Assembly (NCBI GenBank): GCA_963728045.1
Contig: CAVSIE010000003.1
Coordinates: 2,231-66,230, forward strand
Length of the DNA stretch: 64,000 bases
Source of the DNA: an uncultured Solirubrobacterales bacterium
GTDB lineage: Bacteria > Actinomycetota > Thermoleophilia > Solirubrobacterales > 70-9
Direction of reading: 5' to 3'
The notes below the pieces were generated by a model that saw only the letters and a program-made list of their open reading frames with translations, was not told the DNA's origin and did no database searches. Shown in pieces: positions 3,379-24,770 of the stretch. The position numbers were made by a program, and so were the translations under genes. The stretch's first letter is position 1, and each line of letters starts with the position of its first letter.

Positions 3379-4392
3379 ATGGCAGGCATCAGCTTCGTCG
3401 ACGCCCTCCTCGACCCGCAATCCGGCAATGAAGCGGCCGATCGCGACGGGCAGCGCGCTGACGACGACGCGCTCGACGCCTACTCGCGCGCGGTGACCTC
3501 GGTCGCCGACCGGCTCTCTCCCTCGGTCGCGAGCCTGCGTGTCTCGCGGCGTGTACGCGGCGGACGACGGCTCGACGGGGCCGGGAGCGCCGTCGTCATC
3601 ACGCCGGACGGTTTCATGCTCACCTCCGCGCACGTGGTCGCCCAGGCCGACGGCTCGGGGCGCGCGTCCTTCGTCGACGGGCGCGAGCACGAGTTCCGTG
3701 TCGTGGGAGCGGATCCGCTTTCCGATCTGGCCGTGCTGCGGCTCGACGGCAGCGATCTCACCGCTGCCGAGCTCGGAGACGCCGAGCGCCTCCGCGTCGG
3801 CCAGCTCGTGGTCGCCATCGGAAACCCACACGGCTTCACGGGCTCCGTCACCGCGGGCGTCGTGTCGCAGCTCGGCCGCTCGCTGACCGTGGCCGCAGGC
3901 CGGATCGTCGACAACGTGATCCAGACCGACGCGGCGCTCAACCCCGGGAACTCGGGCGGTGCGCTGTCCGACGGCCGTGGCCGGGTGGTCGGGATCAACA
4001 CCGCCGTCGCCGGCGTCGGCCTCGGCCTCGCCGTGCCGGTCAACGGCGCGACGAGGAAAATCATTGCGGCGCTGATGACGGAGGGGCGCTTCCGACGCGC
4101 CTATCTCGGTATCGCAGGCGGGCCGCGCCCGCTCCCGCCCCGTCTCGCCGCGAGGCTCGGACGCAAGAACGCAGTCGAGATCGTCGAGATCGTCGAAGAC
4201 AGCCCGGCCGCGGTCGCGGGTCTGCGGCCCGAGGACCTGATCGTCGAGGTGAACGGGCTACCCGTCGAAGGGGTGAACGACCTTCAGCGGCTGATGGCCG
4301 GCGAGCTGATCGGGACCGACGTCAAGGCGCAGGTCTTCCGTGGTAGCCGCGAGCTCGAGGTCACGCTCGTCCCGCTCGAGCTCGTTACCTAG
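3379..4392 (+). CDS. HtrA/DegP-family trypsin-like serine protease with PDZ domain
   Basis: Contains TSAHVV, DLAVLRL and the catalytic GNSGGAL motif, with a C-terminal PDZ-like region. Confidence 0.85.
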   Translation: MAGISFVDALLDPQSGNEAADRDGQRADDDALDAYSRAVTSVADRLSPSVASLRVSRRVRGGRRLDGAGSAVVITPDGFMLTSAHVVAQADGSGRASFVDGREHEFRVVGADPLSDLAVLRLDGSDLTAAELGDAERLRVGQLVVAIGNPHGFTGSVTAGVVSQLGRSLTVAAGRIVDNVIQTDAALNPGNSGGALSDGRGRVVGINTAVAGVGLGLAVPVNGATRKIIAALMTEGRFRRAYLGIAGGPRPLPPRLAARLGRKNAVEIVEIVEDSPAAVAGLRPEDLIVEVNGLPVEGVNDLQRLMAGELIGTDVKAQVFRGSRELEVTLVPLELVT

Positions 4393-15675: not shown

Positions 15676-16059
15676 ATGGCACGTATCGCAGGCATCAACA
15701 TCCCGGTCGGCAAGCGGGTCGAGATCGGTCTTACTTATGTCTTCGGGATCGGCCGCTCTACGGCGCAGGAGATCCTCGAGGAGACGAAAATCGACCCCAA
15801 CACCCTGGTCAAGGACCTGACCGAGGACGAGGTCGTGCGCCTGCGCGAGGCGGTGGAGCAGCGCGAGGTCGAGGGCGACCTGCGCCGCGACCGCTCCCAG
15901 AACGTCAAACGGCTGATGGAGATCGGCGCCTACCGCGGCCTGCGGCACCGCCGCGGCCTGCCGGTACGGGGCCAGCGGACCAAGACCAACGCGCGCGGCC
16001 GCAAGGGCCCGCGTCGTCTCAGCGTGGCTGGCAAGCGCAAAGCGCCCCAGCCTAAGTAG
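15676..16059 (+). CDS. rpsM: 30S ribosomal protein S13
   Basis: [26 protein letters not shown]..., a canonical S13. Confidence 0.95.
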
Positions 16060-16137: not shown

Positions 16138-16350
16138 ATGCGCTTCAGTCGGCATGCGAAGAACCGGATGCGACTGTGCGGTGTTTCCGGCGACGAGGTC
16201 CTGGAGATCATCTCCGATCAGAACCGAGCTGGAGAGGATCCGAACGGGAATCTGCTCTATGCCGGGACCATCCAGGGTCTCTCGCTCTGCGTAGTGCTTG
16301 CGCTCGATGACCTGACCACCGTGATCACCGTCTACGATCTGGAGGCATGA
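16138..16350 (+). CDS. DUF4258-domain protein (putative toxin)
   Basis: MRFSRHAKNRMRLCGVSGDEVLEII...TVITVY pattern. It overlaps the next ORF by 4 nt. Confidence 0.65.
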   Translation: MRFSRHAKNRMRLCGVSGDEVLEIISDQNRAGEDPNGNLLYAGTIQGLSLCVVLALDDLTTVITVYDLEA

Positions 16351-16643
16351 TGCGAGCCGACTACGACAGCGAGGGCGACACGATCCAGATCGAATTGGGG
16401 CGTGTTCGGAAGCTCGGACATAGCGAGTTGGTCGAGAACGGTGCCGTCATCATCGGAATCCATGAGGATCGACCGGTGATGGTCGATGTGATCGGGACGC
16501 GCAACGGCTTCGAGGAGCCGCTTCGAGTCGCCGCGGAGCGCTACGAGCTCGACGCCGAAGCGCTGATTGCTGCCGCGAATGCGGCCCTTGCGGCCCCCGA
16601 CCGGACCGTGACGCTGGACGTCGGCGTCCGGGCCGCGGCCTGA
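16347..16643 (+). CDS. DUF2283-domain protein (putative antitoxin)
   Basis: N-terminal ADYDSEGDTIQIEL signature. It is start/stop coupled to the DUF4258 gene. Confidence 0.65.
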   Translation: MMRADYDSEGDTIQIELGRVRKLGHSELVENGAVIIGIHEDRPVMVDVIGTRNGFEEPLRVAAERYELDAEALIAAANAALAAPDRTVTLDVGVRAAA

Positions 16644-17809: not shown

Positions 17810-18790
17810 ATGACCACTGACTTTCAGGTCCCCCGCATCAGCTCAGAGAAGGTGGACGATCGCCGCGGCACCTTCACCATCGAGCCCCTAGACAAGGGGT
17901 TCGGGTACACGTTCGGCAACAGCCTCCGCCGCGTCCTGCTCTCCTCGCTCGGCGGAGCTTCCATCACCAGTGTCCGCATCGAGGGGGTCGCGCACGAGTT
18001 CTCGACCGTGCCCGGCGTCAAGGAGGACGTCACCGACATCGTCCTGAACCTGAAGGACCTCGTCGTCCGCATGCACACCGACGCCGACGAGGTTGAGGCG
18101 CCGCTGGTGGCCACCGGCCCCGGCGAGGTCAAGGCCAAGGACATCGACCTGCCGTCGGGGGTGGAGATCCTCAACCCCGACGCGCCGATCGCGACGCTGG
18201 AGAAGAAAACCAAGCTCGAGGTCTACCTGACGATCGGCCGCGGTCGCGGCTACTCGGCGGCTGAAGACAACAAGTCGGACGACCAGCCGATCGGCGTGAT
18301 TCCGATCGACTCGATCTTCTCGCCGATCCGGCGCGCCTCTTACTCGGTCGACACCGCTCGCGTCGGTCAGCGCACCGACTTCGACAAACTGACTCTCGAC
18401 CTCGAGACCGACGGCTCGATCGAGCCGGGGGCGGCGCTGCGCGAAGCCTCCGAGATCCTGATCAAGAGCCTGGCGATCTTCACCGACGCCGACCGGGTCG
18501 AGGAACTGACCGCGCGTGATCCGGTCGTTTCCCACACCGCCGATGCGGTGGCCGGGCTCGCCGGCGAAGGGATCGCCGAAAGCAACGGGCTCGATGAGAT
18601 CCTGATCGAGGAGCTGGAGCTGGGCGTGCGCTCCTACAACTGCCTGAAGCGGGCGGGAGTGCAGACGGTCGGCGACCTGGTGCGGAAGTCCCGCGCCGAG
18701 CTGAACGCGATCCCCAACTTCGGCCAGAAGTCGATCGAGGAAGTGATCGAAACCCTCCAGTCCCGCGGCCTCGACCTGCAGCCGGACTAG
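17810..18790 (+). CDS. rpoA: DNA-directed RNA polymerase subunit alpha
   Basis: GFGYTFGNSLRRVLLSS in the N-terminal domain and ELELGVRSYNCLKRAG in the C-terminal domain. Confidence 0.95.
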   Translation: MTTDFQVPRISSEKVDDRRGTFTIEPLDKGFGYTFGNSLRRVLLSSLGGASITSVRIEGVAHEFSTVPGVKEDVTDIVLNLKDLVVRMHTDADEVEAPLVATGPGEVKAKDIDLPSGVEILNPDAPIATLEKKTKLEVYLTIGRGRGYSAAEDNKSDDQPIGVIPIDSIFSPIRRASYSVDTARVGQRTDFDKLTLDLETDGSIEPGAALREASEILIKSLAIFTDADRVEELTARDPVVSHTADAVAGLAGEGIAESNGLDEILIEELELGVRSYNCLKRAGVQTVGDLVRKSRAELNAIPNFGQKSIEEVIETLQSRGLDLQPD

Positions 18791-18821
18791 GAGCGCGAGG
18801 GAGCAGGGGAGAGCAGAGCCG

Positions 18822-19175
18822 ATGCGTCACCGCAAGAAGCGCAACAAGCTCAGTCGCGACGCGTCGCATCGCGAGTCGCTGCTCTCCAACCTCTGCAAGC
18901 AGCTGATCGACCACGAGCGGATCGAAACCAGCCAGGCCAAGGCGAAGGCGGTCAAGCCCGAGGTCGAGCAGCTGATCACGCTCGCCAAGCGGGGCGACCT
19001 GCACGCGCGGCGCCAGGCGCTGGCGACGCTGCACAACGACAAGTTCATCGTGCACAAGCTGTTCGAGGAGGTCGCGCCGCGGTATGTCGAGCGGCCGGGC
19101 GGGTACACCCGCATCGTCAAGTTGGGTCCGAGGCGTTCGGACTCGACTGAGATGGTTTATCTCGAGTTGGTGTAG
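18822..19175 (+). CDS. rplQ: 50S ribosomal protein L17
   Basis: MRHRKKRNKLSRDASHRESLLSNL..., a canonical L17. Confidence 0.95.
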   Translation: MRHRKKRNKLSRDASHRESLLSNLCKQLIDHERIETSQAKAKAVKPEVEQLITLAKRGDLHARRQALATLHNDKFIVHKLFEEVAPRYVERPGGYTRIVKLGPRRSDSTEMVYLELV

Positions 19176-19176
19176 G

Positions 19177-19267
19177 GGAGGCGGGATTTCCTCCCGCCCC
19201 GACAAGTGCCGCGCTAATTAGCGCGGCACTTTGAGTATCCGCCGGTTCGGGAGGAAATCCCGCCTCC
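19177..19267 (+). repeat. Nested-hairpin element, copy 1 (also a plausible bidirectional terminator for rplQ and truA)
   Basis: Perfect 20-bp outer stem (19177-19196 / 19248-19267). Perfect 28-bp inner palindrome (19204-19231). Unpaired CCCCGAC and TGAGTATCCGCCGGTT. Confidence 0.75.
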
Positions 19268-19288
19268 ATCACTCACAAGCGAACCCGC

Positions 19289-20023
19289 CTAGTCGTAGTT
19301 GACTGACTCCAGGTACAAGCCGTGCGGGGGTGCTGTGTCGCCGGCTGCTGACCTAGGTGCGCCGGCTAGGAGCTGGGTGAAGTCCTCGACTGTGCGTCTT
19401 CCGGAAGCTGCTTCGAGCATGGTGCCTACTAGGGCGCGGACCATGTTGCGCATGAAGGCGTCGGCGGTGATGCGGAAGGAGAGGATGTCGCCTTCGGCGG
19501 TCCAGGCTGCGGTGAGGACGTCGCGGTCGAAGCGGACGTGGTCGGTCTGGGTCGGGGTGAAGGCGGTGAAGTCGTGCGTGCCGATGAGAGCCTCCGCGCA
19601 GGCGTCAAGGGCGTCGCGGTCGACGCGGTGCGGCCACCAGAGCGCGCGACCCTGCTCAAAGGGGCTCGGGGTGCTCCGCGCGAGCACGCGGTAGCGGTAG
19701 CTCCGAGACTTCGCGCCGCGCCGGGCGTCGAAACCATCCGCTACGACCGCAGCCGTGGTGACCGCGATGTCGTCGGGCCCGACCCCGTTCAACCGCCGTG
19801 CCAAATCCCCCGGCACCTCCGCTTCCGTCTCGAAGCTGGCCACCTGCCCCAGCGCATGCACCCCTGCATCGGTCCTCCCGGCCACGGTCAGCTGCACGGA
19901 TGCGCGCAGCACTGTCTCCAGCGCCGCCTCCAGCTCCCCCTGCACCGTCCGCAGCCCAGGCTGAGCCGCCCAGCCTCGGAATCTGCTTCCGTCATATTCG
20001 ACGTCGAGCCTTACGGTTGGCAC
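19289..20023 (-). CDS. truA: tRNA pseudouridine(38-40) synthase TruA
   Basis: VRLDVEYDGSRFRGWAAQPG...GRTDAGVHALGQV...FMRNMVR. GTG 20023 is chosen as the start, and the ORF-track N-terminal extension that crosses the repeat is rejected. Confidence 0.85.
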   Translation of the reverse strand: MPTVRLDVEYDGSRFRGWAAQPGLRTVQGELEAALETVLRASVQLTVAGRTDAGVHALGQVASFETEAEVPGDLARRLNGVGPDDIAVTTAAVVADGFDARRGAKSRSYRYRVLARSTPSPFEQGRALWWPHRVDRDALDACAEALIGTHDFTAFTPTQTDHVRFDRDVLTAAWTAEGDILSFRITADAFMRNMVRALVGTMLEAASGRRTVEDFTQLLAGAPRSAAGDTAPPHGLYLESVNYD

Positions 20024-20051
20024 GGGGCAGCAGTATGCAGCGACCGTGATA

Positions 20052-20144
20052 GCGACGCGGGGGACCTCCCGAACCGGCGGATACTCAAAGTCGTCGCGCC
20101 CATAAGCGCGACGACTTGTCGGGGCGGGAGGTCCCCCGCGTCGC
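20052..20144 (-). repeat. Nested-hairpin element, copy 2 (inverted relative to copy 1)
   Basis: Perfect 20-bp outer stem (20052-20071 / 20125-20144). 12-bp inner stem within 20088-20117. The same unpaired CCCCGAC and TGAGTATCCGCCGGTT blocks are present on the minus strand. Confidence 0.75.
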
Positions 20145-20181
20145 CCACGCGCGCGGGGCGAGGGATGCCCGCCCCGCCGCC

Positions 20182-20187
20182 TAGAAT
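20182..20187 (+). promoter_or_regulatory. Possible -10 box (TAGAAT) for a leaderless surE transcript
   Basis: TAGAAT lies 7 nt upstream of the surE ATG, and there is no Shine-Dalgarno sequence between them. Confidence 0.3.
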
Positions 20188-20194
20188 CGCTTCC

Positions 20195-23025
<2,831 letters not shown>

Positions 23026-23321: not shown

Positions 23322-23537
23322 GTGAGCAAGCATAACTTTCGTTACGCAAATATCGGCATCGCCGTTGCGGCAGCGATTATCTGGGGTGGGGTGATCCTCT
23401 TCAGGAACTCCGAAGCGGCGATTCAGGCAGTCGGGCTGATTGGGTTCTGTTCGGCGTTCGTCGTCTACCACGTGCTCGACGAGAGGGCGTGTCGACGAGA
23501 GGGCATTTCGACACGAGAGGAAAAGCGCCCTCAGTAG
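23322..23537 (+). CDS. Hypothetical small membrane protein
   Basis: 71 aa with two hydrophobic segments. Confidence 0.3.
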   Translation: MSKHNFRYANIGIAVAAAIIWGGVILFRNSEAAIQAVGLIGFCSAFVVYHVLDERACRREGISTREEKRPQ

Positions 23538-24770
23538 CTGGCGATCGCGGCGGCGATGCGGTCCTGTTCGAGGTGGGCGCGGCCGAGGTCGTCGACGCTG
23601 CCCATCAGGATCGAGAAGATCATCACCTTGCCGCTGCGGTTGAAGCAGTAGCCGGAGAGGTTGCTGACCCCGGTCAGGGTGCCGGTCTTGACCCGGCAGC
23701 GGCCGGCGGCGGCGGTGCCGTCGATGCGCGAGGCGACGGTGCCCTCGCGCCGGTCAGGGCGAGCGACTGGATGAAGTCGTCGCCGATCTCCTCGCCTCGC
23801 ATCGACTGCAGGAAGCGGACGACCGCCGAGCGGCGAGGCGCGGTTGGAGCGGGTCAGGCCGGAGCCGTCGACGGCACGGACGCTGACTCCATGCTCGCGG
23901 GCGAAGCGCTCGACCACCGCCGCCCCGGCGGCGGTGGTGCCGGCGCTGCCGAAGTGGGCGCCGATCAGCTTCAGCAGCATCTCGGCGAAGAAGTTGTTGG
24001 AGTAGACGTTGGTCGCGTTGGCGAGCTGGGAGATGTTGGGGGAGCGGACGACCGCGAGCGTCTGTGCGTCCGTGGGGGCGGCCCGCAGCGCCACCTGGGG
24101 CGCGATCTGAACGCCGGCGCCTCGCAGCGAGCGGGCGAGCTTGCGGTCGCGACCTTGGCCGGGTCGGAGGCGAAGCTGCTGCCGCTGGAGCTGCTGTAGC
24201 CGGAGTTGAACGAGAGGCCCGAGAGGGGGCCGATGTAGGGGCTGGTCGCGTAGCCCGAGTCGGCGACGCCGCGCAGGCGGTCGAAGATCGTGTCGTCGGC
24301 GTAGAGGCGGCCGGTGACCGTGCGCACGCCCGCCGCGCGCAGCTGACGCCTTGAGCGCGAAGAGGTTGGTGCCGAGGCCGCCGAGGAAGCGGCCGTAGAA
24401 GGCGGGTGTGCCCAGCGCCGGGTCGCCGCCGCCCTGCAGGTAGAGGTTGCCGTGCAGGACGCCGTTGAGGTCGATGACCCCGTCGCTGAGGACTTTGGTC
24501 GCGATTCGCGTCGCGGCCCGAAGCGGGCGAGCGCCGTCGCCGTCGTGAACATCTTCATGTTCGAGGCCAGCGGCCGCGGCGTGCTTGCCGCCCGCGCGCA
24601 GAGGACCTCGCCGCTTTCGGCGTTGATCACGAAGAGCCCGCTGGCCGACCGCCGCCGCGGAGCAGCCGCGATTTCAGCGCTGCCGCAGAAATCGCCGCCG
24701 GGGCCGTCGCCGGCGAAAACGCGAGAACGGCGGCGACGAACGCGGCGAGTAGCGCGAGCGCCCGTCTCAT
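23531..24770 (-). pseudogene. D-Ala-D-Ala carboxypeptidase/endopeptidase (PBP4/S13, DacB-like) with multiple frameshifts
   Basis: ATG 24770 gives the signal peptide MRRALALLAAFVAAVLAF. S13-like segments are spread over all three frames: VINAESGEVL..PASNMKMFTT, KVLSDGVIDLNGVLHGNLYLQGGGDP, VTGRLYADD, LRAAPTDAQTLAVVRSP, DGSGLTRSNRASP, RVKTGTLTGVSNLSGY. I traced about six frame changes. Confidence 0.7.

Follow-up and report, generated by a model that had tools for sequence, protein, structure and literature searches.

Palindromic interspersed repeats of uncultured Solirubrobacterales occupy intergenic spacers and, in frame, coding sequences

Why are the two short spacers around truA in an uncultured Solirubrobacterales bacterium each filled by a copy of the same nested hairpin? 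The locus lies within a 64-kb stretch of DNA (the window, whose numbering is used throughout), where copy 1 (19177-19267, + strand, 91 nt) stands between the stop codons of rplQ and truA and copy 2 (20052-20144, - strand, 93 nt) occupies the truA-proximal part of the truA-surE spacer. A preliminary description of this DNA had placed the two copies at these positions with one shared architecture, which is confirmed, had read them as a structure under selection, such as a REP or MITE (miniature inverted-repeat transposable element)-like element, and had proposed that truA was inverted between them. The selected-structure idea is borne out by the data presented here: the hairpin belongs to a dispersed family of 89-101-nt palindromic interspersed repeats with massive compensatory variation, present in intergenic spacers in any orientation and as in-frame insertions into coding sequences, and its pairing is maintained by Watson-Crick compensatory change even within genes. 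Taken as a whole, the family is probably a REPIN- or RPE-like DNA element that works as a folded single strand. The inversion idea fails, since truA keeps the same orientation in all 16 related loci, whatever elements stand beside it.

Relatives were searched for further copies with a degenerate exact pattern, run over one genome per species, and the matches listed comprise more than 117 stretches in more than 90 genomes. Nearly all of these records are titled Solirubrobacterales or Thermoleophilia metagenome-assembled genomes, a few carrying broader or other bin names, and several genomes have matches on different contigs; no element was found on viral contigs, with the CCGYC core variant allowed. 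The family is confined to uncultured Solirubrobacterales (class Thermoleophilia) of a lineage whose genomes measure about 2.5-3 Mb, and a literature search for this palindromic repeat family found no description. The element has no open reading frame (ORF) of its own. A covariance model built on an alignment of 122 distinct pattern-selected copies scores copy 1 at 107 bits and copy 2 at 95.5 bits and adds five further, more divergent secondary copies in ~1 Mb of fetched flanks, while the 64-kb window yielded no third copy, whether 3 mismatches were allowed or the full model was run with its filters off.

The copies were placed in their genomic surroundings by all-vs-all BLASTP clustering of 1032 flanking proteins, with Pfam on representatives, and by a caller based on GC content at third codon positions (GC3), which reproduced the reference gene calls for L001 (L numbers denote the related or element-carrying loci compared with the window). 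About 60 distinct sites are resolved, and the neighbours are housekeeping genes (rplQ/truA, surE-ligA, ftsH-folP, infB, aconitase (acn), a class-I tRNA synthetase and biotin carboxylase), none of them a recurrent companion, with no protein cluster present in more than 20 of the 127 loci. An L17 identical to that of the window is encoded on ten contigs (L001-L010), seven of which have an element directly 3' of rplQ and two a second, inverted copy 5' of truA. Copies fill short spacers, often beginning 0-7 nt from a stop codon and sometimes overlapping it, and the orientation classes of flanking genes around the element (E) are even, with 34 copies in >E>, 27 in <E>, 24 in <E< and 23 in >E<; orientation against gene strand is only weakly skewed (74:55, in observations that are not independent). 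Apart from a slight surplus of T (57/121) in the base that immediately follows the element, the flanks showed no motif, such as a T run.

The architecture of the unit was largely as described before. In both window copies the outer stem is a perfect 20 bp and the inner hairpin 12-13 bp, the 18-nt block CCTCCCGCCCCGACAAGT and the 27-nt block ACTTTGAGTATCCGCCGGTTCGGGAGG are identical between copies and occur exactly twice each in the window (chance expectation 0.00 for the longer block), and alignment in register confirms that the distal stem halves differ between copies yet are complementary within each. The loops between the stems, previously taken to be unpaired, have the sequences then given, but they contain a short helix in which C-N-G pairs with C-N'-G. 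The full unit is therefore an outer stem (P1) of 19-25 bp across the family, a 2x2 loop of CC opposite TT, a 5-bp helix (P2), a 9-nt bulge (TGAGTATCC, or GGATACTCA on the opposite strand), an inner stem (P3) of 12-13 bp and an apical loop, mostly AATT, with T-A or C-G as its closing pair. In copy 1, on the + strand, P1 is formed by 19177-19196 and 19248-19267, the 2x2 loop sets CC 19197-19198 against TT 19246-19247, and P2, lying inside the supposedly unpaired loops, joins 19199-19201 to 19243-19245 and is extended to 5 bp by 19202-19203 with 19241-19242 through an A.C mismatch; P3 (19204-19215 with 19220-19231) encloses the AATT loop (19216-19219), and the bulge occupies 19232-19240. The corresponding parts of copy 2, on the - strand, are P1 at 20144-20125 and 20071-20052, P3 at 20117-20105 and 20100-20088, and the bulge at 20087-20079. 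The free energies of the window hairpins are -73 to -86 kcal/mol, and the folding z scores of -9 to -12, for either strand and as RNA or DNA, were equalled in 0/200 shuffles.

Across the 122 aligned copies, standard pairs fill 96.4% of 4259 stem cells (shuffled 72%, slid 40-52%), and both sides have changed in 29 of 35 pairs. The covariation score of 0.64 (0.17 shuffled, 0.09-0.12 slid) was reached by 0/500 shuffles. As G-U pairs make up only 0.8% of stem cells, pairing is essentially strictly Watson-Crick. The distal 13-16 bp of the arms vary freely between copies, and even in P2, which has the form C-N-G-A-C with G-C-C-N'-G and an A.C mismatch on the strand as written, the N/N' position of CCC-N-GAC ... 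CCGCC-N'-GTT covaries as C-G, T-A or G-C. The bulge TGAGTATCC, which follows P2, is by contrast invariant in the 122 pattern-selected copies, and it has been kept while its surroundings changed in copies found independently of the pattern (L022, L028, L081, L128 and L129), of which L022 and L128 have a perfect CTGAC/GTCAG as P2. Judged from the copies seen, the bulge is the best-conserved part of the element and is presumed to be its recognition site. One form lacks it: L085 6339-6413, which ends at the contig edge, is a perfect palindrome (..CCCGCTCTGACAAATGCCGGCCTAATTAGGCCGGCATTTGTCAGAGCGGG..) with no 9-nt bulge and with its loops converted to pairs, and may represent either a symmetric ancestor or a derived state.

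The stems also distinguish the two strands. With each event counted once per site, A.C mismatches outnumber G.U mismatches by 54 to 18 (p=2.6e-5), and an A.C on the written strand is a G.T wobble on the other, where the invariant A.C and the CC/TT loop become G.T and AA/GG. The GGATACTCA strand therefore folds better than the opposite strand, and it is apparently the selected one.

Approximately 21 pattern copies lie in long ORFs that have coding-type GC3 (0.74-0.97) in both halves and a single frame, and three intragenic in-frame sites are well documented. In EgtB (L117 1511-2692) a sense element lies between the DinB_2 and FGE-sulfatase domains, where it is read as ..GPLSPGQAPGQLARRFEYPPVRERPR.., a stretch that PDB 4x8b does not have; L031, L039 and L047 carry an element at this site too, as does L029 to judge from flanking sequence. 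A PMT_2-like membrane protein of ~510 aa contains an antisense element, read as ..PLERADTQSAGLIRPALVRARG.., and all 120 of its closest homologues (>=78% identity) in a collection of 5.8 billion proteins carry ..LERADTQSAGLIRPALVRARG.., with the DTQ reading of the bulge kept in ~115 of the 120. Most representatives at <=50% identity align in two stretches that omit residues ~180-222, and in an 18-sequence alignment homologues at <=62% identity are without the insertion. Among 14 orthologous copies in this gene 99.4% of cells are paired and 21 of 35 pairs are doubly changed, hence the hairpin has been kept by compensatory change in situ within a translated region. The Pfam match of this protein to PMT_2 is itself sub-threshold (21 bits), and its gene adjoins dnaX in two genomes (L128 1-254 and L129 1-265).

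The third site is in an unannotated protein of 540-680 aa, where an antisense element is read in another frame as ..GRGYPPNGRILKAPSQLARRLSGRG.., and a candidate fourth was called in an amidotransferase-like ORF of L078. One gene thus has the element in sense and two have it in antisense, and three frames or strands yield three different peptides. The loop CTAATTAG is open in one frame only and the other two gene sites have CCAATTGG or CCTAATGAGG, i.e. the loop variants fit the reading frames of the host genes. A model in which only the core was inserted into pre-existing host hairpins was rejected, given that the PMT_2-like protein, and probably EgtB as well, has the entire unit, arms included, as an addition relative to homologues. 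The short hairpin in the rplQ-truA spacer of L002 does not support that model, because the spacer is explained as window copy 1 minus the stretch between 5-nt CGGGA direct repeats.

The copies turn over: new ones arrive, while old ones decay by deletion and give way to others. Besides the deletion in L002, the rplQ-side copy of L009 has decayed through small deletions, the rplQ and truA stops of L008 and L010 overlap as CTAG with no element, and a single arm remains in the truA-surE spacer of L004 and L005. In the same spacer of the window, sequence comparison identifies a 27-nt remnant of an older copy (20155-20181, - strand, surE-proximal), consisting of one arm and the start of the core, beside the complete and different copy 2. 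This remnant is orthologous to copy 2 of L001 and L003 and to the solo arm of L004 and L005, while copy 2 matches the position of the truA-proximal element in L022 and L041. Same-site copies are moderately more alike than different-site copies (0.69 vs 0.59). The rplQ-site copy of L005 and the aconitase-site copy of L060 are 94% identical over variable columns, differing at two stem pairs only. That such near-identical copies stand at different sites indicates that core and arms are copied together, and the inserted unit of this dispersed repeat includes the arms.

How, then, might the element persist? The probable answer is that its action and its maintenance lie with the DNA, folded as a single strand, and not with one transcript, given the scarcity of G-U pairs, the even orientations, the genic copies in both sense and antisense and the lack of a T-tract or promoter at the window copies. 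By analogy, a trans-acting structure-specific enzyme or binding protein would recognise the GGATACTCA strand in its folded form by means of the bulge and the apical loop, and the stems would need only to pair, a logic resembling that of REPIN/RAYT, IS200/IS605 ends and integron attC. Perfect pairing might be kept by selection or by arm-to-arm correction within the folded strand. The two window copies are independent residents of the short spacers around truA. If they affect the expression of rplQ, truA or surE, e.g. by giving the convergent rplQ and truA transcripts a strong hairpin at their 3' ends, this would be a side effect.

Several observations weigh against this interpretation. No transposase, RAYT or recombinase was found beside the element at 127 loci of ~8 kb, and border direct repeats do not exceed chance (0/121 at >=4 nt), leaving no target-site duplication. 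Copy number appears low, at roughly 10-20 copies per 2.5-3 Mb genome by a rough extrapolation, and two copies from one genome resemble each other no more than copies from different genomes do (0.614 vs 0.594), with no sign of concerted evolution or a recent burst within genomes. Any activity must be rare or ancient, because most sites are common to several species. Orientation is only weakly biased with respect to local GC skew (76:53, in observations that are not independent), some of the uniformity of the core among the 122 copies was built in by the search pattern, and long retention with perfect pairing would also be expected of a site that benefits its host.

Comparison with known systems places the element closest in behaviour to REPINs and RPE (PMC3116915, PMC10969869), yet it is a member of no family tested. 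RPE (Rickettsia palindromic elements) are summarised in PMC10969869, citing Ogata 2000 and 2002, as palindromic repeats of ~100-150 bp in tens of copies, both intergenic and in frame in unrelated genes, where they are translated as extra loop peptides; they are largely common to related species and, as far as that summary goes, no transposase is known for them. The Solirubrobacterales element is likewise palindromic, in frame in unrelated ORFs and mostly common to related species, but its hosts are Actinomycetota, it encodes no single conserved peptide and it combines free stems with a fixed internal 9-nt bulge, and it is on these grounds, not by sequence comparison, that the two are set apart. 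REPINs are hairpins of ~100 nt with invariant motifs and a variable part that need only pair, in which compensatory changes are frequent, and they are inherited vertically and persist for long periods in one lineage, with folding of single-stranded DNA proposed (PMC3116915; bioRxiv 10.1101/2021.07.10.451892). The present hairpin similarly has invariant motifs and compensatory change elsewhere, and it too is passed on vertically and has long persisted in its lineage. However, REPINs stay outside genes, occur for the most part in hundreds of copies, keep their arms (the REP sequences) conserved and flank their own RAYT gene, whereas this element has variable arms, low copy number and at least three intragenic sites, with no RAYT seen beside any copy at the 127 loci of ~8 kb.

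MITEs such as Correia/nemis, ERIC and BOX/RUP/SPRITE are short, non-coding and bounded by inverted repeats, are co-transcribed with their neighbours, are in some cases embedded in frame in ORFs, and form clusters or insert beside one another (PMC10969869). The element is also short, non-coding and multi-copy, and the remnant beside a full copy at 20052-20181 recalls MITE clustering, but target-site duplications are absent, no autonomous relative of the element was found, and the terminal inverted repeats differ from copy to copy, for which reason the arms are not the transposase-binding ends of a parent insertion sequence. Since neither a conserved terminal inverted repeat with target-site duplication nor an extragenic, high-copy distribution was found, the family is neither a MITE nor a REP/REPIN. 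Integron attC sites and the ends of IS200/IS605 elements are recognised as folded single strands, in which extrahelical bases and geometry matter and the stem sequence is free. One strand would be the better substrate here too, although the analogy is one of logic only: the R''/R' boxes of attC (RYYYAAC/GTTRRRY) are absent from the alignment, where GTTCGAG follows the helix, copies are solitary beside housekeeping genes and not in cassette arrays, and no integrase or TnpA is nearby. Conserved hairpins at gene ends include L17DE (Rfam) and TRIT, the U-less actinobacterial terminator repeats; copy 1 resembles L17DE in lying directly downstream of rplQ, but with about 60 sites the element is not rplQ-specific.

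A bolder version of the folded-strand reading, conceivable but doubtful, makes the element the cis-site of an undescribed, long-lived single-stranded DNA system of Thermoleophilia. An enzyme unrelated or only distantly related to RAYT/HUH proteins would read the GGATACTCA bulge between helices of arbitrary sequence, the ~10-20 hairpins would be kept by the host at fixed places, genes included, and they would serve as preferred inversion breakpoints, as at surE-ligA.

It is unlikely that the hairpin is instead a cis-acting structured RNA, such as a U-less 'I-shaped' terminator, a 3'-end stabiliser or an RNase III site, that was spread or recruited for helping the expression of its neighbours, e.g. 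by insulating the convergent rplQ and truA messages. Compensatory changes are typical of RNA structures, a hairpin of -73 to -86 kcal/mol is very stable, many copies begin 0-7 nt past a stop codon with 23 of them between convergent genes, and the wobble asymmetry implies that one strand matters more than the other. Yet copies have no orientation preference with respect to flanking genes, 27 lie between divergent genes, and those in coding regions, sense and antisense, would make termination or cleavage harmful. G-U pairs, at 0.8% of cells, are scarce, and a scan of 18700-20400 found 0 T-tract terminators and 0 sigma-70 promoters, hence no T-tract at the window copies. In a scan against Rfam 15 at E<=10 the only matches were chance-level miRNA, snoRNA and similar families, with none to L17DE or any terminator family; the top match, the spurious miRNA MIR6297, reached 30 bits against a gathering score of 114, and all others had E >= 0.8. 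An intrinsic terminator was considered separately and rejected, there being no T/U tract after the hairpin and 0 sites in 18700-20400.

It is similarly improbable that the element is a host-domesticated, immobile DNA site, held at ~10-20 positions, whose hairpin, cruciform or double-stranded palindrome GGTCTAATTAGACC is bound by a host protein in a nucleoid, topoisomerase or replication role, as proposed for enterobacterial REP/BIME sequences. Such a site would account for the conservation of positions across species beside core genes, for the long maintenance of pairing, bulge and apical loop, coding sequence included, and for a low copy number without homogenisation within the genome. It accords less well with the loss of copies without visible consequence (L002, L004, L005, L008-L010) and with the difference in occupied sites between close relatives that have an identical L17; in-frame genic copies are more easily explained by insertion than by design, and no candidate binding protein is known.

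The locus itself remains to be explained. Upstream of copy 1, which begins 1 nt past its TAG, is rplQ (L17; 18822-19175, +, PF01196), and between the two copies is truA (19289-20023, -, PF01416), a gene of 244 aa with a GTG start; the distances given previously, 21 nt from the end of copy 1 to the truA stop (19289-19291) and 28 nt from copy 2 to the GTG (20023), are correct. Beyond copy 2 is surE (20195-21007, +, PF01975), with ligA (21004-23025) next. Every one of the 16 related loci in which both genes are present has truA antisense to rplQ. Both copies are present in the window, L001, L003 and L022, the rplQ-side copy only in L004-L007, L009, L021 and L116, the copy 5' of truA only in L041, and no copy in L002, L008 and L010. 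As loci carry both, either or neither, the two sites are occupied independently, and as truA is oriented identically with both, one or no copies, its orientation is independent of the elements. No recombinase or invertase gene is present among the neighbours of the window truA locus.

On the surE side there is a break in synteny, which falls exactly in the copy-2 spacer among relatives with identical L17, where surE-ligA, inverted ligA-surE or an ABC transporter follows. In the first arrangement (window, L001, L003-L007, L021, L052, L108 and L116) surE and then ligA come next on the + strand; in the second (L022 and L041, with L085 and L097 showing the other end) the pair is inverted in place, as ligA and surE on the - strand; and in the third (L002, L008-L010) the ABC transporter is next. 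The breakpoint spacers are 20024-20194 in the window, 3940-4140 in L022, 3940-4065 in L041, 4928-5035 in L097 and, for both ends of the inversion, 3380-3490 and 6335-6413 in L085. Breakpoints fall at element borders and not within elements, only L085 has inverted elements at both ends of the surE-ligA inversion, and these two elements are dissimilar, one of them being without a bulge. An origin of this inversion by exchange between flanking elements or by their replicative transposition is not supported, the arms being complementary in every copy and the L085 elements unlike. What is left of the recombination idea is weaker, a coincidence of elements with rearrangement junctions among the neighbours of truA.

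That the inverted pair is an inverton-like recombination switch which flips the truA segment is therefore very improbable, in spite of the inverted copies with their identical 18- and 27-nt blocks, a truA convergent with rplQ, unlike that of Mycobacterium, and the synteny break in the copy-2 spacer with surE-ligA inverted in L022, L041, L085 and L097, since truA orientation is constant at 16/16 loci, including element-free ones with overlapping stops, the two sites are occupied independently with no invertase or recombinase nearby, exchange within cores would give non-complementary arms when all arms seen are complementary, and the surE-ligA breakpoints lie at the borders of elements that, in L085, are dissimilar.

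Other features of the window were recorded. The remnant at 20155-20181 abuts a TAGAAT box (20182-20187), itself 7 nt before the surE ATG, and the surE-proximal element abuts this box in relatives as well; the box (opposite strand: GATTCTAGG) is kept in L003, L005, L052, L085 and L097. A box 7 nt 5' of the ATG suggests a leaderless or near-leaderless surE mRNA. Between rpsM (ending at 16059) and rpsK (ORF called from 16695), two small ORFs at 16138-16643 encode 70 aa, with a weak, just sub-cutoff DUF4258 match (23 bits), and 98 aa with no family. The same two genes are ~10 nt apart in L001, L003 and L008-L010 and have ORFs of ~75-98 aa between them in L002 and L004-L007, so that 16138-16643 looks like a small, possibly toxin-antitoxin-like, cassette inserted in the ribosomal protein operon. 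The Peptidase_S13 gene 3' of ligA (23531-24630) is in two overlapping ORFs in different frames, 23531-24094 matching profile positions 257-427 and 23971-24630 positions 104-163, while in L001 it is a single ORF of 411 aa; the window version has either become a pseudogene by frameshift or been misassembled.

Palindromic DNA that colonises coding genes in frame now has a well-sampled case outside Rickettsia, in a host group of abundant uncultured soil Actinomycetota. The hairpin is kept perfect while host proteins diverge by ~20%, its translated copies included, and the strand-asymmetric wobble signature points to one folded strand, so that maintenance by selection, by a dedicated enzyme or by in-strand repair becomes testable. 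The element is also an annotation hazard, as it creates protein insertions of 30 aa, can pass for a terminator or an RNA gene and is a marker of breaks in synteny. With the story of an inverted truA removed, the hairpins beside this gene are better understood as two residents of a long-lived family whose probable mode of action is as folded single-stranded DNA.

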